DNA from: an uncultured Ignavibacteriales bacterium
GTDB taxonomy: Bacteria; Zixibacteria; MSB-5A5; GN15; JACZUZ01
Assembly: GCA_964516945.1 (NCBI GenBank)
Contig: CAZFAL010000001.1
Location: 1-61,853, forward strand
Direction of reading: 5' to 3'
Length of the DNA: 61,853 bases
Positions within the stretch are counted from its first letter, which is position 1, and every line of letters starts with the position of its first letter. Positions 1-16,045 of the stretch are shown in pieces. Both the position numbers and the translations under genes were made by a program. A model generated the notes under the pieces. The model was not told the origin of the DNA. It ran no database searches and worked only from the letters and a program-made list of their open reading frames with translations.

Positions 1-444
1 GTTGTTGGATGTCAGGGTTATGTCGGTGAAACTTGCATCCCCGACACTTATTTTGAACGTTCCTGTGCCGAGAATATTCGCATTCTGATCATCAAAGCCC
101 TGTGAGGCGAGCTGATTATTACGCGCCAATTGTGTGACACGCACATCAAATGTACCGGGGATGGCGTTGTCCAACCCGCTGACTTCAACGCTGTCAGTAT
201 CCGACGACGTGATATTCATCTTGTCGAATGTCGCCGACTTGCCCAGGAGCCCGAGTTGTGACTGAATAGCGAGAAACTTGGCTTCGATGGCCTTATAGGC
301 CGAAACCATGTTTGTTTTCTCGGCCTGACGCACCTCAAGCAGACGGGCTGTGCCACGCTCGGCGTTGATAATCGCCTTAACAATGGCATTGGTATCCAAT
401 CCCGACGAGATACCGGTAATACTATTTGCGCCTACTCCTTGCAT
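1..444 (-). CDS. fliD: Flagellar filament cap protein FliD (HAP2), N-terminal part; the gene runs off the left window edge
   Basis: Not in the ORF track because it is open at the edge. Reverse complement from the ATG at 442-444 reads MQGVGANSITGISSGLDTNAIVKAIINAERGTARLLEVRQAEKTNMVSAYKAIEAKF...PGTFDVRVTQLARNNQLASQGF, a typical FliD N-terminus. A GAGGTG Shine-Dalgarno lies just upstream, and the gene sits directly downstream of flagellin. Confidence 0.85.
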   Translation of the reverse strand, partial: MQGVGANSITGISSGLDTNAIVKAIINAERGTARLLEVRQAEKTNMVSAYKAIEAKFLAIQSQLGLLGKSATFDKMNITSSDTDSVEVSGLDNAIPGTFDVRVTQLARNNQLASQGFDDQNANILGTGTFKISVGDASFTDITLTSNN

Positions 445-555
445 AACTCACCTCAGGTGAACCCTTGTTTGCATATACGTTTCAACAACTTAGGACGAAT
501 CGCCTCTCAGCGACCCGACCGGGAAGCGCAACTTTTGCACAGTCCCTCATTTCTT

Positions 556-582
556 GTATCGGCGGCGGGCAAGATATGTTTA
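556..582 (-). promoter_or_regulatory. Sigma28 (FliA)-type promoter for fliD
   Basis: Minus strand reads TAAA-CATATCTTGCCCGCC-GCCGATAC, against the TAAA-N15-GCCGATAA consensus with an exact 15-nt spacer. It lies about 110 nt upstream of the fliD ATG and just downstream of the fliC terminator. Confidence 0.6.
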
Positions 583-630
583 GTGTCAAAATTGAGTCCT
601 AATCCGGCCTTGTTCGAATCTGCTTGAACA

Positions 631-659
631 GAAAAGGGAGCCCTCAAATGAGGGCTCCC
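631..659 (-). terminator. Rho-independent terminator downstream of flagellin
   Basis: Minus strand reads GGGAGCCCUC-AUUU-GAGGGCUCCC followed by UUUUC. This is a 10-bp perfect GC-rich stem, about 57 nt after the fliC stop codon. Confidence 0.75.
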
Positions 660-715
660 TTCCGTTGATATCCATTCTTACCGCTTGCGCGGTTAAATGA
701 TTATCCGAACCGGTA

Positions 716-2896
716 CTATCTGAACAACGACAGCACTGCCTGTGGAATCTGGTTGGCCTGGGCAAGCATCGCGGTGCCGGCCTGGACCAGAATCTGGTTC
801 TTGGTGAACTCAGACATTTCCTTGGCGATATCCGTGTCACGGATATTCGACTCGGCGGCGGTCAGATTCTGTGAGGCAATACGCAGGTTACGCAGGTTGG
901 ATTCCAGAGTGTTCTTCTGGAAGCTACCAAGTGTACCACGTGTTTCGGACACCTCGTTAATCGCGGCGTCAATGACGGCCTGCGCATCCTGAGCGCCTGC
1001 GGCGGTTGTCACGTCGATAGCCGAGAGACTCGAGAACATATTACCGGCAAGGTTCTTGCCAAGTGACTTCGCGGCCATGCCACGCAGACCGATTGTGGCA
1101 GTCTGACCGACAGAGCCACCAATCTGGAAGACAAGTGACTGGTCAGTATTAAAGATGGTCTCGGTGCCACCGGTGGAGTTCAACGCATACTTCACCTTGA
1201 CAGACTGGGTGCGGTCGGCGCTGAAGATGTCAGCTTCCTTACCGGCTGTGACGGCTGTCGCCGGGCCGGCGTTCAAACGCACGTCAAACTTGGCGGCTTT
1301 AGCGTCAAGCAAAAGATTGCCGACATTGATACCCGTCTGGGCGCTGGCAATATTCATCTTGATTGTGCCAACGTTCGTCGAGCCGGTGGCCTTGTTCTGC
1401 AATGTGACCGCAGTGTTCGTCCCGGCATACTTCACCGAGCTGATAGTATTGGTGAAGTTATCAAAACTGACCAATGCATCGACACCGGCATTAGCAGTTG
1501 TGTCATTAGTCAAATTCAGGACATTCTCCAGATCGCCCTTGTCGCCATTGATGGCATTGTGTTTGATCTTGAACGCTGAACCTTCGTCACGAGTCGCAAA
1601 CTCAATCTGGTCACTCGATGCGCCAACGACTGTCGCTACGATATCATTGGCAGTGTTGTCACCCTGGACCTTGGCAAACGCTGTGCCCAATGCGGTATTG
1701 ATAGCAGTGTTCAAGGCTGCGACCGATGTGTATGTGTTTGCTGCGACAGTAACTGCGGCGGTTGTACCTGCGTTTGACGCTGTCGTGGCGGTAAAGTTCA
1801 ACACATTGTCTGAAACACCACGGTCAGAGGCGCCGGCCGTGAAGGTGAAGTAATTCGCAGTCGCGTCGTTGGATGCCGACGAAACTTTGAATGAATAGTT
1901 GGCGCCGATATTCTGTGCTTCAAAGCGCAGACTATTGGCATTGATTGAGGCGTTTACCTTACCGGTCAATGCGGCGTTCGCATTAATGGCGGTCTGGAAC
2001 TTCGAGGCGACCTGAGCGGATGTGTCACCTGCGGCGAGCGCGACTGTCAAAGTCTGATCGCCTGTGGTGGCTTCGCCATTTTCCTGATAGTTGATGACGA
2101 CGGTGTAGTTTCCGGCAGTTGAGGCATCCACGGTAGCGGCGCCGACTGTTGCGGCGGAATCCACATTGGCTTTGTCCGCTGCTGTGGCCAAAACGAGTGA
2201 ATTCGCAAATGCGTCAGTGATATTGATTTTGCCGGAAGTCTTCTTGGCAACGTCGGAAGCCTGAAGAACATCGATATTGTGAATCTTCTCTTCAAGGTTC
2301 GTCGGTGTGCCATTACCAACCAAAGACAGACCAAGCGACGTGGTGTTCAGAGTCGCGGTGGCGTCAGCGGTTTTTGTAGCTGTGATTGAATGTGTGCCGG
2401 ATTTCAAGTTTGATTGCTCAATCGAAACACCGGACGTGTTGGAGCTTGTGATGGTCGCGATGTTGTCTTTCGAACCGTCAAGCAGTTTCTTGGTGCCAAA
2501 CTCGGTGTTGGCGGCGATACGGTCGATCGTCTTCAGAGCGTTTCCAATTTCAGCCTGGTCAGCGGCGAGCTGATTGACATCGTTGAAACCCTCGTTGGCG
2601 GCGTGAATCGACAGCTCTCTCATGGAGACGAGCAATGAGTTGATTTCGGTTAACGCGCCTTCAGCGGTCTGGATCATGTTGATTGATCCTTCCGAGTTGT
2701 CAATCGCACGGTTAAGACCGGCAATCTGAGCGCGGAACTGTTCTGAAATTACGAGACCGGCCGGGTTATCGGCGGCTCTGTTGATCCGGAAACCTGAGGA
2801 CAGCTTCTCCATTGACTTGGAGAGCATGTTCGATGAATTGATCAGGTTTCTATTCGCGTTTAACGCGGTTACGTTGTGGTTAATACGAAGCGCCAT
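716..2896 (-). CDS. fliC: Flagellin, unusually large (726 aa)
   Basis: Conserved flagellin N-terminus (MALRINHNVTALNANRNL...LSSGFRINRAADNPAG) and C-terminus (...LRIASQNLTAAESNIRDTDIAKEMSEFTKNQILVQAGTAMLAQANQIPQAVLSLFR). The central region of about 490 aa is rich in Ala/Thr/Ser/Asn. An AAGGAGGAAG Shine-Dalgarno precedes the ATG. Confidence 0.95.
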   Translation of the reverse strand: MALRINHNVTALNANRNLINSSNMLSKSMEKLSSGFRINRAADNPAGLVISEQFRAQIAGLNRAIDNSEGSINMIQTAEGALTEINSLLVSMRELSIHAANEGFNDVNQLAADQAEIGNALKTIDRIAANTEFGTKKLLDGSKDNIATITSSNTSGVSIEQSNLKSGTHSITATKTADATATLNTTSLGLSLVGNGTPTNLEEKIHNIDVLQASDVAKKTSGKINITDAFANSLVLATAADKANVDSAATVGAATVDASTAGNYTVVINYQENGEATTGDQTLTVALAAGDTSAQVASKFQTAINANAALTGKVNASINANSLRFEAQNIGANYSFKVSSASNDATANYFTFTAGASDRGVSDNVLNFTATTASNAGTTAAVTVAANTYTSVAALNTAINTALGTAFAKVQGDNTANDIVATVVGASSDQIEFATRDEGSAFKIKHNAINGDKGDLENVLNLTNDTTANAGVDALVSFDNFTNTISSVKYAGTNTAVTLQNKATGSTNVGTIKMNIASAQTGINVGNLLLDAKAAKFDVRLNAGPATAVTAGKEADIFSADRTQSVKVKYALNSTGGTETIFNTDQSLVFQIGGSVGQTATIGLRGMAAKSLGKNLAGNMFSSLSAIDVTTAAGAQDAQAVIDAAINEVSETRGTLGSFQKNTLESNLRNLRIASQNLTAAESNIRDTDIAKEMSEFTKNQILVQAGTAMLAQANQIPQAVLSLFR

Positions 2897-2902
2897 TTCT
2901 GA

Positions 2903-3021
2903 CTTCCTCCTTGAATGACTCGCTAATTGCTTTAGTTTCTTGATTCAGTGCGAGCGCGCAGACGGTGTTACTTCCGGGTTGCTTACTTCTTCAAAAAGTC
3001 TACGCAGGAACATCCATGTTC
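2903..3021 (-). promoter_or_regulatory. Putative CsrA-binding elements in the flagellin leader
   Basis: One GGA lies inside the Shine-Dalgarno (AAGGAGGAAG, 2903-2912). A second GGA is presented in the loop of the hairpin GAAC-AUGGAU-GUUC (3008-3021). This two-site layout resembles the hag leader of B. subtilis, and csrA and fliW are both in this window. Confidence 0.35.
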
Positions 3022-3304
3022 ACTTCGGTCCTATCGTGTGACAATGGGCTTATTGCCCTCTTGAGTGCGTTTTCTGACGGTTTCAAGTGTGACGCAGCCA
3101 CAAGCGTCACTATAATCCCCTCTCCTCCTATACTTTACCGGTTTCCAATCTTTCTGATTTCTTTAGTCATATTTATCTTGATAGCTCTGCCTACTCATTG
3201 CGCTTACAAACATAAATACATGTTACTTTGTATAGCTTTCTCCTGTACAAACTTGCTAAACGGCCCTCCGGAATTAACCGAAGGTTGCCATGTATGTATC
3301 ATTT

Positions 3305-3331
3305 TTTTCGGCCAATTGGACAAAACCTTCA
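3305..3331 (-). promoter_or_regulatory. Candidate sigma28-like promoter far upstream of flagellin
   Basis: Minus strand reads TGAAGGTT-N11-GCCGAAAA, matching 13 of 16 positions of TAAAGTTT-N11-GCCGATAA with the correct spacing. If real, it implies a 5' leader of about 400 nt. It is weaker than the fliD and motA sites. Confidence 0.3.
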
Positions 3332-3469
3332 CTGTTTTCACAAGGAAAGTATATGAACCCGTTTGTTTACGAATCGAATAGATAATTATTGCCGCAAATG
3401 CGCAAATTTGTTCCAGAGTGGAACTCATTGGCCGTCACACCTTATACCAACGCTTGAATTCTGAAGCGA

Positions 3470-5986
3470 CTACGCTACAGTCTGGTCCTGGGGCTTTTCG
3501 TGAGTTTCAAGAGATTTGAGACGCTCATTGGCTATCCGGTGATTTGGATTCGCCGCGAGGAGACGCCGGTAACCAACCTTCGCGGCTTCGTCGCCACCGA
3601 GAGAGAGGTAACAATCAGACAATGCCAGCAGCGCCTCCTCATCGTCGGGAGACTCACGCAGCATTTGCTCATACACTTCCAGCGCCTCTCCCCCCCGGTT
3701 CAGCCGCAGGAGCAAAGCCCCGAGAATCAGGCGTGACTCACGATCATCCGGCGCAACCGGAGCATACTCCAATAGTCTGTCAACCGCCTCCGCATGAAGC
3801 CCGTTTCGCGCCAGCGCTATCGCGTAGTTGCGCATCAAATGCGCCGAGTGAGGATCTTCGGCAAGCGCTTTTACATACCATTCGCAGGCCTCAGCGTTGT
3901 TCTCAAGCATCAGATTTGCATCAGCCAGACCGGCCAACGTGCGACTATCAGTTGACGATAATTCCACGGCTTTCATAAACGAGTCCCGCGCCTGCTCTAT
4001 TTGTCCCAGAGACAGCTCAACACGCCCACACGCGCCACACAAAAATGCGTTTTCAGAGTCAAAGCCGCCGTTATCCTTCAGCAGTTGCAAGGCCTCTTTC
4101 GGGCGTGACAAATCAACGAGCAGATCACTATATCGCGCCAGAATCGCTTCGGAACCCGCTGTGGCCAGCAAGCCGTTGCGCAATGTGGCTTCAGCCGCAT
4201 CATATTCGCCACTATCAGCATAGGTTTCAACCAGACCAAGATATGCGGAATCCCGCTGCGGATATGCTTCAATGTCTTTTCTGAAACACTCCTGCGCTGT
4301 TTCCCTGCGAGAGAGACGGTAATACATCCAACCGGCGCGCGTATTGGCGTCGAGGTAATCGCTCTCTTCAGCAAGGGCCTGACGATAACGCTCAAGCGCC
4401 TCCTGATAGTTGGCCGACTGTTCGGCTATCAGACCCAGATTGTAATTGGCATTGGCGCGAGAGTTAAGATGTACAATAATCAACGTGTTGGTTTGCTGAT
4501 GCTCGGAATATGCCTCCTGCAATTCCAGATATTTCTGATAGTAGCTGACAGCTTCAGCATAGCGCTCCTGCAAGCGATAGACATGCGCCAGCATGATAAC
4601 GCAATCGAGATATGTCTCATCAATCCGCAACGCATGCAGACACGCCTCTTCGGCCTGCTGATAGTCGGCAAGGGCATAGAACGCTGTGGCAAGCTGGTGA
4701 TGCGCCATCAGATGAATACTGCCGAACTCCGGTGACTCCGGCTCAGTAAGTTCGATAACCTGCCCGGCGTGTTCAATTACTTTCTGACAATCACTCTCGC
4801 TCTCGAGATTACCGCGCGCTCGAATCAGTTGCGCCAGATTGAAATGCGCAAAAGCATTCTTTGGGTCTTCTGCGAGTTGTTTTTCCAGCAGAGCCAATGA
4901 ACGCTCATGTTTTTGTTTCATTTTTTCAGGCGACAGATCGTAGCCATGATGAAGTAAACCGACCGGGCAACGTAATTCTTTCATGTCCGGTTTGTAGTTC
5001 AGACGATTGTGCACAATCCCCTCGTATTGAAGCCCGAGATCACTCCGGAATATGCGGACTGAAGGCAGGAACGTTGCGCTTTTACCTGATCGTTCTGCGA
5101 CATTGTAAACCGTCAAAGACAGCAAATCGAATTCTGTCCTTTGCAGATACTCCTTCAGCTTCGGCGCATCCTCTTCGACAAGCCGTTCGTCGGCGTCAAT
5201 GATGAACACCCAGTCGGAAGTCGCCTGTGCAATTGAATAGTTGCGATGTTTGGAGAAATTACCTTCCCAGGGTTGATGAAATATCTTGCAGCCGAATGAT
5301 GCGGCAATTTCCACAGTTCTGTCATCAGAGCCGGTATCTACGAGAATAATCTCATCGGCTATATCGCGCACAGACAGCAGACAGTCCTCAAGGAACTCTT
5401 CCTCGTTTTTCACTATCATACACACTGAGACGGTCGGACGGTTTGTCACACCCTGTTGCATCATGCGCAACTCCGGTGAGCCGGGGACCATTTTCAGACC
5501 GGCGGAAACAATTCGAGAGGACAGTGAGCGCATGCCGAGACGGTGCGCCAGCTCGGCCCAGTGAATGTACGCGTCCTGAATCTGCGGATTGAGCTCAATG
5601 GCGGTCTCAAAACACAGCGCCGCGCGTTGAGATTTTTCGAGCTGGAGATAGCCCTGTCCCACAATATCAATGACAAAACCTGCATTGACACGACAGCGCT
5701 CTCTTTGCTTGAGCGAAGTCGACTTCTCCTGCGCCTCATCAATAGCAGAAAGAAAAGATTCACCCGCCCGACACACATCATCCCAGCGCGCAAGTTTTTG
5801 AAAGAGCAGTGTTGTCAAGAGAGCCGCTTCGCAGAGGTGTAATTTGCCAAACTCCGCTTCGGCTCCATTTTCGCGCCATTCACATAACTCATCGAAATGA
5901 GCGCGGCACAGACGCGCGTAATGCTCTTGCGCTTCCTTACTGTCAAAGTAAGGTGGTCGTTTTGAAAGACGGTTTTTTTTCGACAT
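3470..5986 (-). CDS. TPR-repeat / family-2 glycosyltransferase / TPR-repeat protein (838 aa); probable flagellin glycosyltransferase
   Basis: GT2 core at about aa 185-400 (VSVCMIVKNEEEFLEDCLLSVRDIADEIILVDTGSDDRT...FIIDADERL). TPR-like repeats flank it on both sides. It is located immediately upstream of flagellin. Confidence 0.8.
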   Translation of the reverse strand: MSKKNRLSKRPPYFDSKEAQEHYARLCRAHFDELCEWRENGAEAEFGKLHLCEAALLTTLLFQKLARWDDVCRAGESFLSAIDEAQEKSTSLKQRERCRVNAGFVIDIVGQGYLQLEKSQRAALCFETAIELNPQIQDAYIHWAELAHRLGMRSLSSRIVSAGLKMVPGSPELRMMQQGVTNRPTVSVCMIVKNEEEFLEDCLLSVRDIADEIILVDTGSDDRTVEIAASFGCKIFHQPWEGNFSKHRNYSIAQATSDWVFIIDADERLVEEDAPKLKEYLQRTEFDLLSLTVYNVAERSGKSATFLPSVRIFRSDLGLQYEGIVHNRLNYKPDMKELRCPVGLLHHGYDLSPEKMKQKHERSLALLEKQLAEDPKNAFAHFNLAQLIRARGNLESESDCQKVIEHAGQVIELTEPESPEFGSIHLMAHHQLATAFYALADYQQAEEACLHALRIDETYLDCVIMLAHVYRLQERYAEAVSYYQKYLELQEAYSEHQQTNTLIIVHLNSRANANYNLGLIAEQSANYQEALERYRQALAEESDYLDANTRAGWMYYRLSRRETAQECFRKDIEAYPQRDSAYLGLVETYADSGEYDAAEATLRNGLLATAGSEAILARYSDLLVDLSRPKEALQLLKDNGGFDSENAFLCGACGRVELSLGQIEQARDSFMKAVELSSTDSRTLAGLADANLMLENNAEACEWYVKALAEDPHSAHLMRNYAIALARNGLHAEAVDRLLEYAPVAPDDRESRLILGALLLRLNRGGEALEVYEQMLRESPDDEEALLALSDCYLSLGGDEAAKVGYRRLLAANPNHRIANERLKSLETHEKPQDQTVA

Positions 5987-6067
5987 TTCTATTCGTTGCG
6001 TTCTTCTTTGATGTTTTTCTCAACAATCCACACCGCCGGGGGCCTCATGTACCGAGACGCCGCCAGC

Positions 6068-7036
6068 TCAGGCCATCGCCGGTTGGCGCGTTGTTCCGGT
6101 GAGAACGCTTTTCTGCGGATTATTGACGCCATACTCCTCAATCATCCAGTCGATGGTTTTCGGCACACCTTCCTCAAGTGAGATATTCAGTTGATGGTCG
6201 AATTCATCCTGCGCCAGAGCGATTGCCGGGCGTTTGTTGACGATATTGTGTTTGTCCTCCGGCAAATATGTCACCAATGACGGATCAGCCCCGGTGTAAT
6301 CGAGAATGATATCAGAAAGTTCTTTGACTGAGCGATATTCCGAGCCGCCGATATTGTAGACCCGTCCGGGCGTGAAACGCTCGCAGACATTAGCCAATGT
6401 CGGGATGAAATCATCAATGTACATGAACACACGGTGATAACCTTCGAAAACTTCATACGGAATACCCATCAAGGCGCGATAACAAAAGAGACATACGACT
6501 GAGCGATACCGATGGTAGTGTTCCCCGGGACCGTAGGCGTTGAAGAACCTCAGACGCACTATCGGTGACTCAAAACGCTTTTCGAAGTTCATTATCTGCA
6601 CTTCATTGACCCATTTGGTTACCGCATAATCATTATGCTGAAGAATCGGTTTGTGCAACGGCAAATCTTCTGAAAGAATCTTCTCTTCAGACTCACCGTA
6701 GATTTCAGATGACGACGAAAAGATGAGCTTGAACCCCTTGCGTTTCTGCCATTCAAGAATGTTTCGCGTGCCGATTACATTCGTCGCCCAGAGCGTGTCA
6801 TAGTATTCCTCGCCATTGATGCGGCCAAACTCCGCCGCGAGATGATACACATAGTCATAGTTCTGCTCGAACACACGCTCAAGCTGGCGATAGTTGCTGA
6901 CATCAGCGCGGATATAGTTTTCCATCGCGTGATGTTGCAAATCACAACCCCAGACTTCATGTCCACGGTTCTGCAGTTCACGCACGAGCGGCTTCCCTAA
7001 GGTGCCCATGCATCCGGTTACGAGAATCTTTGCCAT
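6068..7036 (-). CDS. NAD-dependent sugar-nucleotide epimerase/dehydratase (extended SDR)
   Basis: N-terminal Rossmann motif (KILVTGCMGTLG) and a catalytic YxxxK (YAVTK). The 322-aa length is typical of sugar-nucleotide 4,6-dehydratases, epimerases and decarboxylases. Confidence 0.85.
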   Translation of the reverse strand: MAKILVTGCMGTLGKPLVRELQNRGHEVWGCDLQHHAMENYIRADVSNYRQLERVFEQNYDYVYHLAAEFGRINGEEYYDTLWATNVIGTRNILEWQKRKGFKLIFSSSSEIYGESEEKILSEDLPLHKPILQHNDYAVTKWVNEVQIMNFEKRFESPIVRLRFFNAYGPGEHYHRYRSVVCLFCYRALMGIPYEVFEGYHRVFMYIDDFIPTLANVCERFTPGRVYNIGGSEYRSVKELSDIILDYTGADPSLVTYLPEDKHNIVNKRPAIALAQDEFDHQLNISLEEGVPKTIDWMIEEYGVNNPQKSVLTGTTRQPAMA

Positions 7037-7084
7037 TGTTTTACACTCCTTGTATGATTCTTGTTCTTCTTATTCTACTATGGT

Positions 7085-7672
7085 TCATAATCTGCGAACC
7101 GCTACTATTGCACGTGAGTCACAGTCCGGTTTATCATCGAAGAAACCGTCTATTACTACCGTTGCGAATCCTAAGTTTTCAAACTCTTCCGGCTCCCATG
7201 AGCTCCGATGCAACTGATATTCCTCTCCGCCGAGGCCGAACGCATCGCCTTCCTGCGGATGATTCCCTGCGGGGCAGTGCACAAAAATGGTTTTCCTGCA
7301 AATACGTTCGACATCTTCAAGTAGCTTCAACGCTACAGGCTTACTGAGGTGTTCGATAAAATCAATCAACATCACTCCATCAAAGCTGTCCTGCGAGAAC
7401 AGCTCCGCCGCCTTTGTGGCGTCATAGCGAATCGCCACAACCGAAGTGTCGCAGATCCTTCGTTCAATGTAGGGCGCATGGACTTCAACCCCGACACGCA
7501 CTGCGGCGTTTACCGCATCAATCATTTCAAAATGCCCGGCTCCGAGTTCAAGCACAGACTTGCAGTCTTTCAGTTGCTCGCAAATAACCTGGATTATTTG
7601 ACCACGTTTTGATTCCGGTGTGGCATGTGAGGCCACAACGGGTTTCGGTTGTGCTATTACAGTCGGCATCAA
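7085..7672 (-). CDS. Class I SAM-dependent methyltransferase (195 aa)
   Basis: Motif I-like VLELGAGHF and a downstream acidic loop. There is a 4-nt overlap with the stop of the upstream 1196-aa gene, suggesting translational coupling. Confidence 0.6.
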   Translation of the reverse strand: MMPTVIAQPKPVVASHATPESKRGQIIQVICEQLKDCKSVLELGAGHFEMIDAVNAAVRVGVEVHAPYIERRICDTSVVAIRYDATKAAELFSQDSFDGVMLIDFIEHLSKPVALKLLEDVERICRKTIFVHCPAGNHPQEGDAFGLGGEEYQLHRSSWEPEEFENLGFATVVIDGFFDDKPDCDSRAIVAVRRL

Positions 7673-10600
7673 GCGCTCTCTCCCAGAATTGCATCAGTTA
7701 AGTAGTGAACCAGTTGTGCGGGATGCCAGTATTCTCTCATCCATGTGTATGTTTCCCGCTGGAGTTGCAGTAATCTGTCCGGCGCTTTCAACAACGCTTC
7801 AATTCCGGCGCTTAGTTCGGATTCATTTTTAACTATGAGCCAGGGTAATGTGTCAGTCTGCAGAGTTTCGGCTATCATATTTCTGCCGAACTTATCGACA
7901 TAGACAAAATTGACGAGTCCCAGCGCTGAGTTTTCCAAGGAGGACATACAGTAATAGCCGTCATTGACTTGCATTTGATCTAAAGCAATCTGCCCCTGCC
8001 GCTTCAACGCCAGCGATTCCGCATACGAAAGCCCGGTTTTGATAGCCAGCGCGACGTGCGGATATTTCGGAGCCAGCTCTTTGACTACCCGTTCCAATTC
8101 CGCCGAATTTTTGATTGGCGGGTCTGTCGGGGTTTGCACAATCAGCGCCTTCTCTGATGGTTTGATATCACGCTGATAACGCTCTGCGTCAATGTCCAGC
8201 CACGTGGGCACATACAGCGCGTCCTGCCAGCGGCGCTTCAAATCCAGTTGCCCGGTGGCAACGCGCCACTTCTTTTCTTTGGCGTAATGGTCCCAGTACC
8301 AATTGGAGTTTTTGCGCGTGGATGTCGCTCCGAAAAAGAATGCGACACATGGTTTACGTTTGCTATAATCCGCCCAGTCCAGCTTGCCCCAGAGCAGACC
8401 GTCAGTGTCATCCAGTCTTTGGTCGCCCAGATTCATTTTCGGATAGGTGCAGGCTGAAAATACCAGCACATCGGCTTTCTCGGCGAGGTAACGAAGCCGC
8501 TCTTCTTCGGAAATAGTCAGTTCATTGATTGGAGCGTCATCACCGGCCCAACCCTGGCGGCGCAGGACAATGTCACTGTCGAAGCCCCGTGTTTCCTTAA
8601 ATGTTACAACCCGACAGAGATGCTCAGTGTGACGATTGATAGCCCGCGCATACATCGCCGCATTTCCGCAGGGGTCCGCTGTTCCAATCCAGAGTATTCG
8701 TTTGCCGCCGCTTTTTTCCTCGGGAAAGTCCGGATCCACTCCATATCCCAGCCGCGACTCGGTAGGTATTCCGGCAGACATCGCAGTTGAGCGAGGCCCC
8801 GGCGCGTTGCTGATGACACCCCGCTCCCGTTTCATTTCCGCAAAGTAGGCCTCCATATAGGCGCGGTATTCTTTTTGTGATTTGGGAATATCCGCCTGAT
8901 GTGTCACCTGCCCCGGGTGAAGACGATAATACACCAGCGCCTTGGGAATAAACTCGAACTTGTAGTGATACCCCATCTTGTGCCACAACGCGCCATCAGC
9001 GCCATAGCCGATTTTGCCGCCCAGCTCTTCGTCAAAGTAGCCGGTTCTTTCCAAAGCGCTCTTGCGGAACATTACCGAACAGCCATGGATAGGATTACCT
9101 TTGAACATCTCTTCAACGAATGTCGCGCCATCGAGCGCCTGCACATTCGCCCTACCTTGCAATTGCGACTGCGCAGACATATAGAAGAAATCACTATACA
9201 CCCAGCCGACCTCCGGCTTTTCCGACAGCAGTGACACATTCTCCCAGACTTTATCGGGATGGTAGGCGTCATCTGAGGAGAGCCACGAAATAAACTTCCC
9301 CTTTGCCTGACGCATCGCGGCGTTCAAGGCCGCTGAAACACCCTTGTTCTCCTGTGTGATGACGGTAATCTTGTCGGGGTACTCCGCAGTGTACTGCGCG
9401 AGAATTTCCTGTGTGTTGTCAGTAGAGCCGTCATCGACCACCACAATTTCAATGTGTGGATACGTTTGTGATAGCGCCGAGGACAACGCTTCGGGCAAAT
9501 AATCGGCGCGATTGTAGGTGGGTACCACGATTGACACCAGACCGAGGTCAACCGTTTTGTCGACTATCTTTTCCGGTGTGGCGCTGACTTGTTCTATCAC
9601 GTCACTGACTTCTCTGACTTGCCGCTCCAGCCCAAAGTTCGCTTCAATATGTGAGCGGTACTCTTGCGCTAATTCAGCCCGGTCCTGATTCATCATCTTC
9701 TGCACAAGCTTCAGACAGTCAGCGGCGGTCAGGAAACGACAGGATTCAGGATACACATTGTCCGCACCAAACCAGTCATGCACCAACGGCAAGACCCCAC
9801 TGGCCATGCCCTCCGCAATTGAGAGATGGAACGATTCGAACAGAGATGTAGAAATCACAAAGTCCATTCCACGATAAAACGCAGGCATATCATCTATCCA
9901 GCCGTGGTACTGTATTTCAATTCCCAGCTTGCGCGCCATATCCCGCATATACAGCTCAAGACGCGGGTCTTGTTGCTCACCTGCGATATGCAATTCAAAC
10001 TCCGGGTCCCAATCATGGATGGCCTTGAAACAATACAGTAATAACTGCGGATTCTTCTTGTAATTAATATAGCCGACGGAAGCGATTCGCTTGCCGTACT
10101 TCTTCTTTGCCGGGACAGCAAACTTCTTCACATCAACGGCATTGTAAACTACATGCCGCTTCACTGATTTCGGGATTCTTTTCTCCATCAATGTCTGCAC
10201 TGAATCATTGACAAACACAATGGCGTCAACCTTACTCCAGTCAATCTGCGCCGGCATATCAGTAAATGCCTCATAGCTGTGCAAACGGCAGATTATCGGA
10301 CAACACTTCGGCAAATGATTTGTAACCTGAATCAACAACTGATCACACCAGTCAAACCAGGCGACATCACACCATTCAAGCGCCTGCTTCATTTCCATCA
10401 GGTTGCCCTGCTGAATCAAGCGTGTTTGGTTGTCGCCATCCAACGCGGTCATCAATTCTTTCAGGAATGACGGTTGTGACGCAAAGAATGCAATGTTCTT
10501 GCCGGTGATTGTGACAGGCGACTGCGCTGTTCGAACATTTGCTGAGCGCATCTTTGAAGCTCTGCTTTCGAGCGCAGCGCTAATCTCATCTGCAAGCGCT

Positions 10601-11259
10601 TCTGTTCCAGTGTCTTCGACAACAACACCGGCGCTACCGTTGTCAAATTTTTCTTCCCATGTGGTAAGCTCGACGTTTGGACACTTCTTGCGCCACAGAT
10701 TCAAGTAGCGGCGTCCCCGCCGATAATCGCCGGCGCCCTCACACAAACCTAAGAGCCCGGCAAAACTCTCATCAGGATTCTCAGATTTCCGAATCGACTC
10801 TATGAAAGACTTCAAGGCCTCGTCAAACTTCGCCAGATGTGTATATGTAATTCCCAGGTCGCGCAGCATCGCCGCATCCGCAACTCCGGCGCTTTCGGCC
10901 TGAGAGAATATGTCCGCCGCTTTGGCGAATTCACCGGCTCTGAAATGAGTCAGAGCCAGATTGTGATACAGGTCGGGATTCGTAGAGTCAATTTTCAGTC
11001 CGCGTTCAAACCAGGAAACTGCGTCGCGGTCTTTCTGAAGCGTTGCCGCAAGGCAACCGGCCATCATCACCAAACTGGAATTAGCCGAATCCTTTCCGGC
11101 TATCTCGCAAACGAGCGGATAGGCCTCTGCAGTCGCCCCCTGAGCCAGAAACGTGTTTGCCCGCCTGATAAGATCATCAGCGACAGACTCCGCTACAGTA
11201 GCGCCGCCTGTTTCAGTATTGTGTCGTTCCTGATTTGAATAAGAAGAAGAAGATTCCAT
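7669..11259 (-). CDS. Multidomain glycosyltransferase (1196 aa): TPR + GT-B (GT4-like) + GT2 + C-terminal domain of about 350 aa, unassigned and possibly GT-B-like
   Basis: TPR region at about aa 1-190. The GT4-like region at about aa 250-520 ends in FESFHLSIAEGMASGVLPLV. The GT2 region at about aa 575-790 contains VSIVVPTYNRADYLPEALSS...VVVDDGSTDNT...SSDD. The C-terminal domain at about aa 850-1196 contains CMSSLENSALGLVNFV. Confidence 0.8.
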   Translation of the reverse strand: MESSSSYSNQERHNTETGGATVAESVADDLIRRANTFLAQGATAEAYPLVCEIAGKDSANSSLVMMAGCLAATLQKDRDAVSWFERGLKIDSTNPDLYHNLALTHFRAGEFAKAADIFSQAESAGVADAAMLRDLGITYTHLAKFDEALKSFIESIRKSENPDESFAGLLGLCEGAGDYRRGRRYLNLWRKKCPNVELTTWEEKFDNGSAGVVVEDTGTEALADEISAALESRASKMRSANVRTAQSPVTITGKNIAFFASQPSFLKELMTALDGDNQTRLIQQGNLMEMKQALEWCDVAWFDWCDQLLIQVTNHLPKCCPIICRLHSYEAFTDMPAQIDWSKVDAIVFVNDSVQTLMEKRIPKSVKRHVVYNAVDVKKFAVPAKKKYGKRIASVGYINYKKNPQLLLYCFKAIHDWDPEFELHIAGEQQDPRLELYMRDMARKLGIEIQYHGWIDDMPAFYRGMDFVISTSLFESFHLSIAEGMASGVLPLVHDWFGADNVYPESCRFLTAADCLKLVQKMMNQDRAELAQEYRSHIEANFGLERQVREVSDVIEQVSATPEKIVDKTVDLGLVSIVVPTYNRADYLPEALSSALSQTYPHIEIVVVDDGSTDNTQEILAQYTAEYPDKITVITQENKGVSAALNAAMRQAKGKFISWLSSDDAYHPDKVWENVSLLSEKPEVGWVYSDFFYMSAQSQLQGRANVQALDGATFVEEMFKGNPIHGCSVMFRKSALERTGYFDEELGGKIGYGADGALWHKMGYHYKFEFIPKALVYYRLHPGQVTHQADIPKSQKEYRAYMEAYFAEMKRERGVISNAPGPRSTAMSAGIPTESRLGYGVDPDFPEEKSGGKRILWIGTADPCGNAAMYARAINRHTEHLCRVVTFKETRGFDSDIVLRRQGWAGDDAPINELTISEEERLRYLAEKADVLVFSACTYPKMNLGDQRLDDTDGLLWGKLDWADYSKRKPCVAFFFGATSTRKNSNWYWDHYAKEKKWRVATGQLDLKRRWQDALYVPTWLDIDAERYQRDIKPSEKALIVQTPTDPPIKNSAELERVVKELAPKYPHVALAIKTGLSYAESLALKRQGQIALDQMQVNDGYYCMSSLENSALGLVNFVYVDKFGRNMIAETLQTDTLPWLIVKNESELSAGIEALLKAPDRLLQLQRETYTWMREYWHPAQLVHYLTDAILGESA

Positions 11260-11303
11260 GTGCGGTCCAATCGCATGTATAGATTTCAGCTCTGTCCATA
11301 GAG

Positions 11304-11954
11304 CTAAACGCCAATAGTTTCCTTCCGGCGCTGTGTTTTTGAGAGCGATGTTTTTGAGAGCGATGTTTTTGAGCGCGGCTTTGAGGATGTCCTTGACGTA
11401 TTGCGCTCAATGGTTTCCTCTGCAACCGATTCCTCTGCAATCAATGGCTCACACACTGAGTAGCGGGAATTAACCAGCGCCAATTGCTTTGATTGACGTG
11501 TGAAGGTGTTAATAACAACCGGACCCTGTAAATTGGCGGTCATCTCCCGCGGATTCCCCGGGGCCGTAACAATGACATAGGTCTCAACTTCAGAGCCGTC
11601 GACAACACCGATATCTTCAACCTCTTTGGGATTTACTTCAATGCTGTAATCCGGAAAAAACAATGTCGGGTTAATGAGCAGAAACGCCAGCTCCGGAGCT
11701 TCCATGGATTGCAACCAGATAAACGGCGCCATTTCTTCGCTCTCAACAAGAATGAAGAAACGATAATTCTCGAATCCCAGAATCGGTTTTTCCAGAGTTA
11801 TACTCTTCCCGGCTGCGATATGCAACTCGCCAAATCTGGTAGTCTTGACCATTGTCTCAGTTGCCCGGGTAGTCGCTTCGATAGTTTTCTTTCGAGTATC
11901 ACCCTCTTGAACAGCCCCTCGAACAACATTCTGTGTCATATCTCGCATAGTCAT
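11304..11954 (-). CDS. fliW: Flagellar assembly factor FliW (CsrA antagonist), with extended termini; start uncertain (11954, 11948 or 11852)
   Basis: FliW core: TTRFGELHIAAGKSITLEKPILGFENYRFFILVESEEMAPFIWLQSMEAPELAFLLINPTLFFPDYSIEV. A basic, Ser-rich C-terminal tail of about 35 aa is encoded partly by a 15-bp tandem repeat. Confidence 0.85.
   Translation of the reverse strand: MTMRDMTQNVVRGAVQEGDTRKKTIEATTRATETMVKTTRFGELHIAAGKSITLEKPILGFENYRFFILVESEEMAPFIWLQSMEAPELAFLLINPTLFFPDYSIEVNPKEVEDIGVVDGSEVETYVIVTAPGNPREMTANLQGPVVINTFTRQSKQLALVNSRYSVCEPLIAEESVAEETIERNTSRTSSKPRSKTSLSKTSLSKTQRRKETIGV
11335..11379. repeat. 15-bp tandem repeat (two full units plus one degenerate unit) inside the fliW 3' end
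   Basis: The unit gtttttgagagcgat occurs twice, followed by gtttttgagcgcggc. In the fliW frame this encodes SKTSLSKTSLSKT. Confidence 0.9.
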
Positions 11955-12024
11955 TTCCTATATGCCGTTTCTTATATACATGTTGTGCGCCATTGCTTCG
12001 ACTGACGCTGAATTATTCCGCCCG

Positions 12025-13959
12025 CTATCTCAGGAAGTCGAGAAGTGACGGTTGAATTATCTTCGACGAGGCTATCAGCCCGGCGCGATAATTGTTTTCA
12101 TGGGATGCGAGCTTTGTCACCAACTCAGTAATATCCGCATCCTCAACTTCACTGAGCTGCCTCACCGTTTCAAACTCATTATTACTTAATTGCCCTGCTG
12201 TGGCGTCCAGCCGGTTTTGCTTGGAGCCAACGCCGCCGCGCAGACTCAACAGTTGATCCATCCCCAACTTCAAAGTGGACATAATCTTGTTCATGTCATC
12301 TTTTGTGATGTCTTCGGCGCCGGGCTTTTCGAGTTCATGTTTCAACAGAATCATCGAGCCGACCAAATCACTTGACCCAAAGATTCCAAGCGCGCTGGCA
12401 GTTTTGGAGCTGTCTGCATTTTCTATCGTAAAGGAATCAGCCGGATTGTTAGAGACAATTTGAAATCCGCTGTTTGTGGCGTTTACTGAGGCAGTCACAT
12501 TCAAGCCACTGGCGTTGATGACGTTCAGCATATCGCCAATAGTCACAATTGAGGGATCGGACAGGTCTATTACTCGCGATGTCATCCCTTGTGTCATTTT
12601 GATAGAGCCAAGCGACAAGCCGTTCGAATTGTTCAACCTCGACAATGGCGTGTTCGTTGTCAGATTCGCATTCACATCTGTACCAGCCAGATTGCCGACA
12701 AATGAACTGGATACGCCCAGGTCAGCAGCGGTCGTACCCGCTCCTTCTCCGATTGTAAAAGCCGCTCCGGGATTTAGCGCTCCACCATTCAAAACCGGCG
12801 CTACAAGGCCATTGATTCCAAGATTTGAAGCCGTCGTTGTGCCGGGATTGTCTTCAAACACCAAATCCAGCGGAGCCCCGTTGCTGTCGGTGATGTCGAT
12901 TCCGGTTCCGGCGCCATTGAGCGCCGCTGTGACATTGCTGACACCATTGGCTGTCAACTGAGTATTGATAGCGTTGAGAACATCACCAACAGTGGAGGAG
13001 GCGCTCAAATCGAGCTGAAAATCTATCGCTCCTGACTGGCTCCTGACATGGACGCCGCCCTGCAAATCCACACCCGCCTCACCATTCAAATGCTGAATTC
13101 CGGTTGACGCAGACACCAGTCCATTGGACGTTGCTGCGAATGTAATATTATTACTTCCGCCTATGCTGGCAGTCAGATTTGTGATACCTCCGGCGGTCAA
13201 TGCGTTATTTATCTGCGTGAGCGCATCGTCAATCGTGGTCGGCGGTGTCGGGACATTCAAGTCAATGACAACACTGGTCCCCAAATTGTCATCTGTGACG
13301 GTAAATGTGTTAATATCAATCCCGGAGCCACCCTGCAAATCCGCCAATAGTGTGGCGCCGTCAATCCCAACCTGCAAATCGGATGTCGCACCCTGAGCGC
13401 CTAATTGCTTCAGTAATGTTTCCTGCGCATTGAGGTTCAGTTGGATGGTGACACTGTCATCAATCTCAACTGACATTGCGCCGGTATCACCGACATAACT
13501 GATGCCATCCGGTGAACTGACTATCGGCGCGGTATCCGTCTTGTGGCCGGAAAAAATTCTCCTGCCGCTTTGTTCGGTGTTCACCAATTGCAACATGCGC
13601 TCAATGGCGGACTTTGCCTCGTTCAAGAATGCCGGACGGGCTTCCGGGGAGTCATTGCTTTCATTAGTCACCGCCAAAGCAATGTCCATCGTCTGCTTGG
13701 CGAGGTTGTTCATGTCCGTTAGTGTGCTTTCGTAACTACCGAGCAAGCTGGTTCCAAGACTGATATTCGTATTATATTGCTCAATGCGGGACAATTGGCT
13801 ACGAAACTCTATTGTGCGTTGCAAAGCTAACGGATCATCGGAAGGTCGATTGACACGTTTGCCGGTGGTCATTTGCTCTTGCAGACTGAGGAAAGAGGAT
13901 AGGGACCGCTGCAGATTCACCAGCGTCTGGTTTGCAATCATGTTATTTGTTACACGCAT
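12025..13959 (-). CDS. flgL: Hook-filament junction protein FlgL (HAP3), about twice the usual size (644 aa)
   Basis: Flagellin-like N-terminus (MRVTNNMIANQTLVNLQRSLSSFLSLQEQMTTGKRVNRPSDDPLA) and C-terminus (...ENNYRAGLIASSKIIQPSLLDFLR). The central part has three related segments resembling the flagellin IN motif. Confidence 0.85.
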   Translation of the reverse strand: MRVTNNMIANQTLVNLQRSLSSFLSLQEQMTTGKRVNRPSDDPLALQRTIEFRSQLSRIEQYNTNISLGTSLLGSYESTLTDMNNLAKQTMDIALAVTNESNDSPEARPAFLNEAKSAIERMLQLVNTEQSGRRIFSGHKTDTAPIVSSPDGISYVGDTGAMSVEIDDSVTIQLNLNAQETLLKQLGAQGATSDLQVGIDGATLLADLQGGSGIDINTFTVTDDNLGTSVVIDLNVPTPPTTIDDALTQINNALTAGGITNLTASIGGSNNITFAATSNGLVSASTGIQHLNGEAGVDLQGGVHVRSQSGAIDFQLDLSASSTVGDVLNAINTQLTANGVSNVTAALNGAGTGIDITDSNGAPLDLVFEDNPGTTTASNLGINGLVAPVLNGGALNPGAAFTIGEGAGTTAADLGVSSSFVGNLAGTDVNANLTTNTPLSRLNNSNGLSLGSIKMTQGMTSRVIDLSDPSIVTIGDMLNVINASGLNVTASVNATNSGFQIVSNNPADSFTIENADSSKTASALGIFGSSDLVGSMILLKHELEKPGAEDITKDDMNKIMSTLKLGMDQLLSLRGGVGSKQNRLDATAGQLSNNEFETVRQLSEVEDADITELVTKLASHENNYRAGLIASSKIIQPSLLDFLR

Positions 13960-14030
13960 GATAATTGTAGCCGTTCGTTACAGGGGAACATTATTCACAG
14001 GAACAAGTTGTTCTCAGAAGCATATTTCTC

Positions 14031-14204
14031 TTAGTCCTCGTGATAGACAAATCCGCTGTCGTAGCCGTTTTCACGGAATCGATCCATCACATTCTCACGT
14101 TTCCGGCGGTTGTCTTTGTCTTCTTTCGTGCGCGAGCGGTCGCTCTTCTTACTCTCATCAACACTCGCTCTGTCGCTATCCAACTTATTCCTTCTGCCAA
14201 ACAT
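14031..14204 (-). CDS. Small hypothetical protein (57 aa, highly charged) between csrA and flgL
   Basis: Below the ORF-track size cutoff. Read by hand: MFGRRNKLDSDRASVDESKKSDRSRTKEDKDNRRKRENVMDRFRENGYDSGFVYHED. An AAGGA Shine-Dalgarno lies 9 nt upstream of the ATG, and the ORF is on the same strand as the surrounding operon. Confidence 0.35.
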   Translation of the reverse strand: MFGRRNKLDSDRASVDESKKSDRSRTKEDKDNRRKRENVMDRFRENGYDSGFVYHED

Positions 14205-14232
14205 TCTCTCAGATCCTTCTTGAATGATTTAT

Positions 14233-14547
14233 CTATTTCCCTCTGTTCTCACTGTCAGGATGGTTGCGCTTGCCCTTTTTTAAGGACACCTGCGTCTTTT
14301 TGTCCGGCGCCCCGGTTATCTTCCCTTTTAATGTAGATACAACATTGAGAATGTCATCCTTGAGCGTTGTCGACGCTTTGCGATTCTCCTCTTGTATCTT
14401 GACATATATTTCCTCACGGTGGACAATGACATCGATCGGCGCATCCACGCCGATACGAACCTGCCGTCCATATACGCCAAGCACGGTGACTTTTATATTG
14501 TCACCGATGGTGATTGACTCACCCAACTTCCTTGTTAAAATCAGCAC
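14233..14547 (-). CDS. csrA: Carbon storage regulator CsrA (flagellar FliW-regulated type), with a long C-terminal extension (104 aa)
   Basis: Canonical [48 protein letters not shown]. The start is GTG with a GGAGG Shine-Dalgarno. About 45 extra C-terminal residues are present. Confidence 0.9.
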
Positions 14548-14631
14548 CTCACCCTCCGTGGTGGTTTGCCGTTATTGTCAATATTGTCTCCGGACACTTA
14601 CATCCGGGCAACGTTCACTTCAGAGCGTTAT

Positions 14632-16041
14632 TTATCTGCCAACAACACCCATATTGTTTATCACTGTATTAAACGCCTGATCAACGGTTGTGATGACACG
14701 CGCAGCGGCGTCATAAGCATGTTGCGCGCGAATGAGATTCGTCATCTCTTCATCAAGCGACACACCCTGCACCGCTTCTTTACTTGCTGTTATCTGCTGC
14801 ACAACCAGTTCAAAGTTCTTACGAAAGTTTTTTGACTGACTCGCCTCAACACCAACGCCCCCTACGATTGAGCCATAGAATTCGTTGAATGTTCTTGTGC
14901 CGCCGCTCATCAAACGCAGTGTCCGCATCTTCGACATATCAAGCGCGTTTGACGCATCGCCAATTTCACCCGATTTGGAGGCCGCTATCAATGAGACATC
15001 ATTGAGAACTTTCGAATCTACCGCTATCGTTTGCGCATTCACCGTCGCTGGATCAAAAAAGTTGTTTCCTGTCGGAGCGCTCACTGCGCCGGCGGCTTTG
15101 ATACCATATCCAGCAGAATGAATTTTGTTTACTTCAGTGACCAGTGAACGCGCGAGCTCGTCGAGTTGATTCAGGTATTTTGGGATAACCTCGTCACGAG
15201 TCTCCACCAGGCCACGTATTTCGCCGTTAAGATTCTTGATAACAGTGTCTGTGCCTTTCAGCACAATTGAGCTCTTTTGCTGCCCGTTAATTGTCTCAGT
15301 CTTTGTATCAATTTCATATTGCTGATTGCCGTCAACTATCGCCATACTCCCGATATACACTCGCGCGGCGCCGTTTGTATCCTCGACAACGTTGACATCC
15401 ACGAGATCAGACATTTGATCTATCAGCAAGTCCCGCCTGTCCCGAACATCGTTGGCGCGGGCGCCGTCGAGCTCTGTACGGGCGACTTGTTGGTTGAGAT
15501 CGGCAATCTCTCTGCTCAAGCGATTGACTTCTCCAACCCGATTACCCAAATCACGGTCTACCGAGTCACGGAGAGCATTCAACTGGCTACTGAGTTGGCG
15601 AAAATCACTTGTCAGGGTCACCGCTTTGGCGACAACATCATTGCGCGCTGTACTTGATTCCGGCGCGTTTTCCAATTGTGAGAATGAATTGAACAAATCA
15701 TCCATGTGGGTGCGCAATGACGTGTCACCCGGTTCATTGAACATCGTTTCCAACTGGGAGACGATTTTCTCTTTGAAGCGCCATTTACCCAGCGATTTGT
15801 TCTCCTGACGCAATTGTGCGCCAAGGAACATGTCACGCACTTGACGCACACTTTCCACTTGCACACCGGAGCCGACAAGCCCCAAACCGGTTTTTAGCGG
15901 TTGTGACGCCGCCAGTCGCACACGTTGCCGTGAATAGCCGGGAGTGTTAACATTGGCGATGTTCTGCCCAATTGTCGTCAGAGACATTTGGTGGCTTAAC
16001 AGAGCGCGTTTACCGGATTCTAATGTTTGAAAGAGTCCCAT
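14632..16041 (-). CDS. flgK: Hook-associated protein FlgK (HAP1)
   Basis: MGLFQTLESGKRALLSHQMSLTTIGQNIANVNTPGYSRQRV at the N-terminus and ...VSLDEEMTNLIRAQHAYDAAARVITTVDQAFNTVINNM at the C-terminus. I chose the ATG at 16041 (AGGAGA Shine-Dalgarno) over the TTG at 16062 given in the track. Confidence 0.9.
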   Translation of the reverse strand: MGLFQTLESGKRALLSHQMSLTTIGQNIANVNTPGYSRQRVRLAASQPLKTGLGLVGSGVQVESVRQVRDMFLGAQLRQENKSLGKWRFKEKIVSQLETMFNEPGDTSLRTHMDDLFNSFSQLENAPESSTARNDVVAKAVTLTSDFRQLSSQLNALRDSVDRDLGNRVGEVNRLSREIADLNQQVARTELDGARANDVRDRRDLLIDQMSDLVDVNVVEDTNGAARVYIGSMAIVDGNQQYEIDTKTETINGQQKSSIVLKGTDTVIKNLNGEIRGLVETRDEVIPKYLNQLDELARSLVTEVNKIHSAGYGIKAAGAVSAPTGNNFFDPATVNAQTIAVDSKVLNDVSLIAASKSGEIGDASNALDMSKMRTLRLMSGGTRTFNEFYGSIVGGVGVEASQSKNFRKNFELVVQQITASKEAVQGVSLDEEMTNLIRAQHAYDAAARVITTVDQAFNTVINNMGVVGR

Positions 16042-16045
16042 TTGT

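Follow-up and report, generated by a model that had tools for sequence, protein, structure and literature searches.

What are four genes of glycan-building type doing between fliW and the flagellin gene of an uncultured bacterium? The question is raised by contig CAZFAL010000001.1 (assembly GCA_964516945.1), assigned to an uncultured Ignavibacteriales bacterium and placed among the Zixibacteria in the GTDB lineage. The window that we analysed is this whole contig, 61,853 nucleotides (nt) of a 3.07-Mb, 91%-complete metagenome-assembled genome. To our knowledge, nearly all work on the glycosylation of flagellin concerns pathogens in culture, and most of it deals with nonulosonic acids as the sugars. 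A preliminary description of the window had read the four genes, co-oriented with their flagellar neighbours, as a single flagellin glycosylation island. We recovered every open reading frame (ORF) on the minus strand with the same ends, and the Pfam and NCBIfam families of the proteins agree with each other. Taken together, the data make it probable that the four genes encode a cytoplasmic flagellin O-glycosylation system working without a lipid carrier, in which a GmaR-type initiator is joined by a lineage-specific extension cassette. The genes concerned are, in the direction of transcription:

11304-11954, minus strand: fliW, flagellin-binding assembly factor (Pfam FliW, E 4e-37), the upstream border of the variable slot
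7669-11259, minus strand: multi-glycosyltransferase (multi-GT) gene, 1196 amino acids (aa), with three predicted glycosyltransferase (GT) domains behind tetratricopeptide repeats (TPR)
7085-7672, minus strand: class I methyltransferase dependent on S-adenosylmethionine (SAM), 195 aa, with weak Pfam matches
6068-7036, minus strand: short-chain dehydrogenase/reductase (SDR) of the extended type, 322 aa, of the Mth373 type, with a predicted nucleotide-sugar substrate (Pfam Epimerase)
3470-5986, minus strand: GmaR-like gene, 838 aa, candidate flagellin glycosyltransferase (Pfam Glycos_transf_2 and TPRs)
716-2896, minus strand: fliC, 726 aa, the presumed acceptor (Pfam Flagellin_N/C)

The 838-aa protein carries a Glycos_transf_2 domain set between TPRs, with TPR families matching over residues 371-818. 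When all PDB sequences were searched with phmmer, the best match was the catalytic domain of GmaR (22ao, E 1.3e-33, 120 bits), which covers residues 183-373, i.e., the GT-A/GT2 catalytic domain, encoded at positions 4868-5440 on the minus strand; judged by eye in the alignment, about half of the residues are identical. The next matches of this domain are the peptide S-glycosyltransferases SunS and ThuS. The GmaR analogy drawn in the preliminary description is thus upheld and, judged by sequence, it is a matter of real homology. Among the PDB matches listed, no similarity to the TPR/anti-repressor part of GmaR was seen, and GmaR appears there only through its 204-aa catalytic-domain entry. The AlphaFold2 (AF2) model of the whole protein, built on 28 orthologues (predicted local distance difference test, pLDDT, 88.7), consists of a helical-repeat N-terminus (residues 17-180), a GT-A domain (186-346) and a TPR superhelix of about 12 repeats (353-828), and Foldseek pairs it with SunS, ThuS and the TPR domain of O-GlcNAc transferase (OGT). 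This succession of a GT-A domain and a TPR superhelix is also that of GmaR, SunS and OGT-type protein glycosyltransferases. In sets of 21 and 28 orthologues from across the phylum, D217, D264, D266 and E267 are invariant and D211 nearly so; the DxD motif corresponds to D264-A-D266, and many of the residues flanking it are also invariant across the phylum. On these grounds the 838-aa protein is most likely a GmaR-family flagellin glycosyltransferase.

In the flagellar locus of the Zixibacteria (Candidatus Zixiibacteriota), its gene belongs to the core and is not part of an insertion. The order flgK-flgL-fliW-[orthologue]-fliC-fliD is the same in 20 of 20 relatives, sampled from four families of the order to which the genome belongs, in which the orthologue measures about 880-905 aa and fliC about 726 aa. 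When named genomes were scanned with an alignment of the 838-aa family, 80 loci came up; of about 50 other Zixibacteria loci in named assemblies, most have the orthologue immediately upstream of fliC. A scan with the 1196-aa protein as query retrieved no close relatives from the named genome contigs. Outside the phylum, distant homologues (25-37% identity) have a flagellin gene within a few kilobases in 20 of 29 loci, and several of the nine others are truncated contigs; the hosts are Brocadiaceae and other Planctomycetota, Syntrophales, Desulfobacterales, Desulfatiglans and Bacillota. The two genes also go together in their distribution. Among 151 genomes sampled evenly from the phylum, with the enzyme called at E <= 1e-40 and flagellin as PF00669, 120 genomes have both, 27 have neither, four have flagellin only and none has the enzyme only. 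The corresponding Fisher test (p = 6e-26) ignores shared ancestry, and more telling is the genus g62, which holds both states and within which enzyme and flagellin covary. Three of the four flagellin-only exceptions were inspected. In one, the enzyme gene is cut by the contig end; in another there is no enzyme match in the 2.4 kb upstream of fliC; and in the third, the well-assembled G076 (L127:12770-14147), a GmaR-like remnant of 57 residues lies between fliW and fliC, so that this flagellated lineage appears to have lost its initiator naturally. The link with flagellin that the preliminary description had proposed is therefore well supported by synteny and co-occurrence. In some Zixibacteria, we also observed tandem fusions of two GmaR-like GT2-TPR units into a single protein (about 1460 aa) upstream of fliC, at L055:3721-8115 on the plus strand and at G110:C6:115153-118860.

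The other three genes behave differently. In other Zixibacteria, the slot between fliW and the core gene holds nothing, a lone GT4 gene, a TPR-GT4 gene or a TPR-GT2-GT-B gene, and the lone GT4 is about 50% identical to the GT4 module of the 1196-aa protein. The full set, i.e., the 1196-aa protein as a single ORF with the methyltransferase and the SDR, was found only in two genus-mates. Since these three genes fill a variable slot, the locus consists of one core initiator and a three-gene accessory cassette, and the single island of the preliminary description has to be given up. In relatives, the accessory genes stay in the slot between fliW and fliC and were not found to have moved away from the flagellar genes. 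In some lineages there is a second variable slot after the GmaR-like gene (L073:8091-14151 and L078:8214-14169), which holds a Fem/GNAT-type acyltransferase (Acetyltransf_6), an SDR, a radical SAM-SPASM protein, an 830-aa GT4-GT2 fusion and a DegT aminotransferase.

The 1196-aa protein can be divided into four parts, all encoded on the minus strand:

10540-11259, minus strand: TPR, aa 1-240
9565-10539, minus strand: GT4/GT-B domain with an EX7E motif, aa 241-565
8740-9564, minus strand: GT2/GT-A domain, aa 566-840
7672-8739, minus strand: GT-B domain without a Pfam match (hereafter C-domain), aa 841-1196

Pfam recognises the TPR at about residues 78-160, Glycos_transf_1 at 380-550 and Glycos_transf_2 at 576-800. 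The EX7E motif is visible in the translation of the GT4 part, and the VDDGS and SSDD motifs in that of the GT2 part, which resembles chondroitin synthase, TuaG and EpsE. The C-terminal 356 aa are matched by no Pfam or NCBIfam model, and ten stand-alone homologues of this domain have no Pfam match either. A word-based homologue search with the C-domain returned just five proteins, so that an exhaustive search of representatives was needed; at E <= 0.001 it found 239 of 1.84 billion cluster representatives, which makes this a rare family. The AF2 model of the C-domain, built on 39 of these 239 relatives, has a pLDDT of 93.6 and a predicted template modelling score (pTM) of 0.91. Foldseek places it, with a probability of 1.00 and template modelling (TM) scores of 0.56-0.64, beside 7qsg, PimA, MshA, BshA and PglA, at 11-16% identity to these relatives of GT4-type fold. 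A Lys, an Asp and a Glu are invariant or nearly so in its nucleotide-sugar half; they are K245, D253 and E268 when counted within the 355 residues from residue 842 of the protein onwards. The C-domain is thus confidently predicted to adopt a GT-B glycosyltransferase fold of the GT4 type; it has the two-Rossmann architecture of PimA, MshA, BshA and the methylmannose-polysaccharide mannosyltransferase 7qsg, whereas, in contrast with the GT4-type families, it is not recognised by Pfam Glycos_transf_1 or Glyco_trans_1_4. With this confident fold, the locus does hold four GT domains, which confirms the "up to four" counted in the preliminary description.

The C-domain allowed us to follow the cassette into other metagenomic lineages, where it occurs as follows:

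L121: C-domain protein between fliW and the GmaR-like gene
L122: C-domain protein between fliW and the GmaR-like gene
L130: C-domain protein between fliW and the GmaR-like gene
L131: C-domain protein between fliW and the GmaR-like gene
L132: stand-alone copy of the C-domain directly before the GmaR-like gene
L045: TPR-GT2-GT-B gene in the slot between fliW and the GmaR-like gene
L124 (gene set at 200-8441) and L133 (gene set at 6218-14567): C-domain protein outside flagellar loci

In the first four lineages, the C-domain belongs to a related multi-GT protein and a methyltransferase of a differing family is also present, and the SDR of L121 is 72% identical to the 322-aa SDR of the window. In L124 and L133, the neighbours are a GT2, a DUF4254 protein, a methyltransferase, a UDP-GlcNAc 2-epimerase (UDP, uridine diphosphate; GlcNAc, N-acetylglucosamine) and an Mth373-type SDR (58% or 48% identical to ours); the L133 set adjoins phage-like small genes (DUF1064, DUF4406 and PhdYeFM). 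The combination of GT2, GT-B, SDR and methyltransferase may be a mobile cassette. The GC content of the three accessory genes (0.48-0.54) is the same as that of their flanks and gives no signal of horizontal transfer. It is tempting to go further and to see in the C-domain a new GT family that serves largely to extend protein-linked glycans beside GmaR-like initiators, in the 1196-aa protein a TPR-docked assembly line, and in the set of GT2, GT-B, SDR and methyltransferase a mobile cassette, present in phage-like DNA as well, that the Zixibacteria took up and joined to a flagellin-binding TPR; we put this forward tentatively, as a possibility to which we would give less than even chances. If true, this assembly line would build a defined, methylated and possibly pentose-containing oligosaccharide on flagellin without a lipid carrier.

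The two small enzymes of the cassette bear on the nature of the glycan. The junction between the multi-GT and methyltransferase genes reads GCT TGA TG. The 4-nt overlap reported in the preliminary description is real and is obtained with a TTG start, while the ATG of TGATG is the more likely initiation codon; in a genus-mate, the methyltransferase has an ATG 6 nt past the multi-GT stop. Such an overlap of start and stop suggests translational coupling. The 195-aa protein has weak matches to MetW, Methyltransf_25 and Methyltransf_23 in Pfam, to MetW and to MftM (mycofactocin oligosaccharide methyltransferase) in NCBIfam, and to PDB entry 3dli (E 1e-4). We infer that its target is the glycan, because of the coupling to the multi-GT gene and because methyltransferases recur in equivalent islands. 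The methyltransferases of related islands were also considered as orthologues of the 195-aa protein, and this was rejected wherever they were compared: the class of function recurs, the gene does not.

For the 322-aa SDR, the closest characterised relative is Mth373 of Methanothermobacter thermautotrophicus (PDB 8w3u/9ar1; E 3e-85, about 52% identity over 300 aa), a probable UDP-xylose synthase with UDP-xylose in its active site (PMC12820599). The SDR keeps the Ser/Tyr/Lys residues and the SxE motif (SSE and YAVTK are present), but it matches human UXS1 with no more than about 88 bits. UDP-glucuronate could come from two dehydrogenases of the UDP-glucose/GDP-mannose family that the genome encodes. 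Mth373 is found in a context of archaeal cell-wall or capsule synthesis, whereas the SDR lies in a flagellar locus. Given the similarity to Mth373, the conserved SxE and YxxxK motifs and a possible source of UDP-glucuronate, our leading guess is that the SDR yields a decarboxylated (pentose) or related sugar, as a candidate UDP-glucuronate decarboxylase/UDP-xylose synthase. The preliminary description had proposed a hexose-derived glycan; by the relationship to Mth373, this may be wrong for at least one of the sugars.

A nonulosonate route was looked for in the whole genome. Maf (PF01973) has no match in the 91%-complete assembly. Two weak matches to NeuB (PF03102), at G000 C210:3933-4691 and C219:3179-4279 (43-49 bits, above the Pfam cut-off), were examined as candidate nonulosonate synthases and rejected: both are synthases of 3-deoxy-D-arabino-heptulosonate 7-phosphate (DAHP), one adjoining the gene for 5-enolpyruvylshikimate 3-phosphate (EPSP) synthase (aroA) and the other bearing an ACT-like N-terminus. 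Such a cross-match between DAHP synthases and NeuB might be taken in error for a sialic-acid-type synthase. The genome is thus without a nonulosonate route, and the absence of such genes noted earlier for the window extends to the whole assembly.

As to the acceptor, the central domain of FliC is about 495 aa long and 22% Ser+Thr; among 31 distinct Zixibacteria orthologues the protein measures 720-751 aa, and 29 Ser/Thr columns of the central domain are conserved. The length of FliC is unusually constant across the phylum, with a central domain conserved at 56-71% per column. FlgL, too, is a large protein, with 644 aa in this genome and 638-644 aa in those relatives whose ORF was read, and it carries a Ser/Thr-rich insert. 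A second, short flagellin-like gene of about 261 aa lies on the minus strand of another contig of the genome (G000 contig C12:341-1060) and is 37-40% identical to the FliC termini; most Zixibacteria genomes have such a trio of large fliC, flgL and a small flagellin of 260-300 aa.

We infer from sequence and models how the system might work, and this holds for flagellin as the acceptor, the order of action, the identities of the sugars and the target of methylation. The 838-aa enzyme would hold unfolded or chaperoned flagellin on its TPR superhelix in the cytoplasm, and its GmaR-type GT2 domain would transfer a first sugar from a nucleotide sugar to Ser/Thr residues of the central domain before export; by analogy with GmaR, this sugar may be an N-acetylhexosamine (HexNAc). 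The 1196-aa enzyme, tethered by its TPR to the same substrate, would then add up to three further sugars through its retaining-type GT4, inverting-type GT2 and divergent GT-B domains. The SDR could provide one donor in the form of a special nucleotide sugar, perhaps UDP-xylose or else a related 4-keto/decarboxylated sugar, and the 195-aa methyltransferase would cap or decorate the chain with a methyl group. The product would most likely be a flagellin decoration of several sugars, probably methylated, made by four soluble enzymes. None of the four proteins contains a membrane-spanning hydrophobic stretch, and the gene string holds no flippase, polymerase, priming transferase or transporter; the assembly encodes no close paralogue of any of the four proteins elsewhere.

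The scheme follows a logic that experiments have established for the type B flagellin glycan of Clostridioides difficile and for the TPR-guided FlmG. Its first enzyme has a relative in Listeria monocytogenes, where GmaR puts GlcNAc on flagellin and is bifunctional; recognition of flagellin has been proposed as the role of its TPR domain (PMC9638930). This beta-O-GlcNAc transferase and MogR anti-repressor is soluble, lies in the flagellar locus and has a homologous GT-A/GT2 domain with the TPR after it. The 838-aa protein differs from it by an additional helical N-terminus of about 180 aa, by a much longer TPR superhelix and by the extension enzymes that accompany it, whereas Listeria adds a single GlcNAc. 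SunS and ThuS (PDB 7msn and 7msk), second-best relatives in both sequence and fold, also carry a helical repeat domain and glycosylate a peptide from a nucleotide sugar; on the other hand, their acceptor is a Cys in the precursor of a small bacteriocin, their length is about 420 aa and their genes lie in bacteriocin loci, not flagellar ones.

For the extension, two further systems are alike in layout. In the type B system of C. difficile, whose locus comprises GT1, GT2 and GT3, GlcNAc is attached by GT1, and methylated rhamnoses by a GT2-methyltransferase (PMC5207246); it shares with our locus an initiating GT2 beside fliC, extending GTs, sugar methylation and an accessory part that varies between lineages. 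In the Zixibacteria, however, three extension domains and a TPR make up one polypeptide, a small protein of its own serves as methyltransferase, the genes stand upstream of fliC and after fliW, and an Mth373-type SDR is found in place of a rhamnose pathway. In Caulobacter crescentus, the N-terminal TPR of FlmG binds flagellins and feeds a GT-B domain (PMC7591256), a succession of modules that is also that of the first two parts of the 1196-aa protein. FlmG transfers pseudaminic acid, whereas the genome studied here lacks nonulosonate synthase and Maf, and the 1196-aa protein has two more catalytic domains.

The likeness to FlmG leads to another division of labour, in which the 1196-aa protein would be a second, independent initiator, acting on other flagellin sites or with other sugars, or would modify another axial protein such as FlgL. 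Like FlmG, whose TPR contacts the flagellins directly, it possesses an N-terminal TPR of its own; plain TPR-GT4 proteins fill the slot in many Zixibacteria, and FlgL offers its large size and Ser/Thr-rich insert. However, in the loci examined, the TPR-GT4 or multi-GT gene never occupies the slot without the GmaR-like gene, while the GmaR-like gene is often alone, a one-sidedness that fits dependence on a primed acceptor, and a TPR would be equally useful for keeping an extender on its substrate. We consider a second initiator unlikely.

A further proposal is that the three accessory genes arrived by a chance insertion and make a glycan unrelated to flagellin, such as a capsule, a lipopolysaccharide side chain or the glycan of another glycoprotein. 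It can draw on the resemblance of the GT2 domain to polysaccharide enzymes (chondroitin synthase, TuaG, EpsE) and on the similar sets of GT2, GT-B, SDR and methyltransferase in L124 and L133, which are non-flagellar and partly phage-like contexts. Yet in at least six lineages the cassette, or a variant of it, is found in this one slot, from fliW to the GmaR-like gene; the 1196-aa enzyme bears a protein-binding TPR domain, no gene for a transporter, flippase, polymerase or priming phosphotransferase lies nearby, and the proteins have no transmembrane segment. Moreover, the gaps of -4 to 81 nt suggest co-transcription of the cassette with flgL-fliW and the GmaR-like gene. An insertion of this kind therefore seems improbable to us. 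Still less credible is a role of the 838-aa protein mainly as a regulator or chaperone of flagellin synthesis, with glycosyl transfer secondary or lost: the two functions of GmaR, the helical repeats of about 640 aa, far exceeding the catalytic domain, and the position beside fliW, the post-transcriptional regulator partner of CsrA, would suit it, but the GT2 catalytic residues are invariant across the phylum, glycan-building genes cluster near the GmaR-like gene in many lineages, the PDB matches listed show no significant similarity to the GmaR TPR/anti-repressor part, and no MogR (PF12181) match was found in the genome, a search of little weight as no control genome matched either.

The reading that we prefer, an initiator and an extension cassette acting on flagellin, has its own difficulties, and the following points weigh against it. 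The evidence consists of sequence, structure prediction and comparative genomics, and the organism is uncultured. The Fisher figure, as said above, takes no account of shared ancestry. The acceptor could include FlgL, the second small flagellin or another protein. The GT2, the GT-B domain and the SDR type are also found outside flagellar loci, so that the chemistry of the cassette is not intrinsically specific for flagellin. The matches of the methyltransferase are weak (24 bits). In the SDR, a Phe replaces Tyr73 of Mth373, the residue proposed for proton transfer, and the activity of Mth373 itself was inferred from its bound ligand and is thus only probable. Finally, six DNA runs, made from samples of microbial mat and hydrothermal vent, contain the locus, and the two RNA runs from these samples have no sequence of it. 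Weighed with these points, flagellin glycosylation, as the preliminary description had interpreted the genes, is supported overall by homology, synteny and co-occurrence.

What does this add to the known routes? The kind of system is already known and is not a new principle; what is new is that it occurs in a phylum that has gone unstudied, and that its enzymes are fused in an unusual way. In the library searched, neither the glycosylation of flagellin in Zixibacteria nor a broad GmaR family beyond the Firmicutes is the subject of any paper, and there is no published characterisation of the pathway, in agreement with the preliminary description, to which it looked uncharacterised. A GmaR-type initiator is fixed beside fliC across an uncultured phylum, is lost together with the flagella and recurs beside flagellin in several other phyla, a pattern that points to a widespread non-nonulosonic route to glycosylated flagella. 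In the slot next to it, the extension module changes from one lineage to another and may be a GT4, a TPR-GT4, a TPR-GT2-GT-B or else the complete fusion of three GTs, accompanied by the SDR and the methyltransferase. The C-domain family, confidently folded as GT-B in the model and beyond the reach of all sequence models, is a candidate for biochemistry and for CAZy classification. As all parts are predicted to be soluble, reconstitution in a laboratory strain of E. coli is conceivable.

The organisation of the whole gene string, flgK-csrA-flgL-fliW-1196-aa gene-methyltransferase-SDR-838-aa gene-fliC-fliD in the direction of transcription, suggests how these genes may be expressed together. Beyond the genes given above, it comprises:

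14632-16062, minus strand: flgK
about 14389-14544, minus strand: csrA, between flgK and flgL
12025-13959, minus strand: flgL, 644 aa
2897-3469, minus strand: non-coding gap of 573 nt upstream of fliC, from the gap sizes
from 444, minus strand: fliD

In all relatives, fliW adjoins the slot on its upstream side. From flgL to the 838-aa gene, the short intergenic gaps fit a single transcription unit, on gap sizes only. A consensus scan of the intergenic gaps found no convincing minus-strand promoter or terminator. The 573-nt region sets fliC apart from the string of flgL, fliW and glycosylation genes and presumably holds the fliC promoter and a CsrA-regulated leader; it is the longest gap in that part of the window. 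The csrA gene (14389-14544, minus strand) is separated from its partner gene fliW by flgL, and the order flgK-csrA-small ORF-flgL-fliW is also present in the Zixibacteria contigs L122 and L130.

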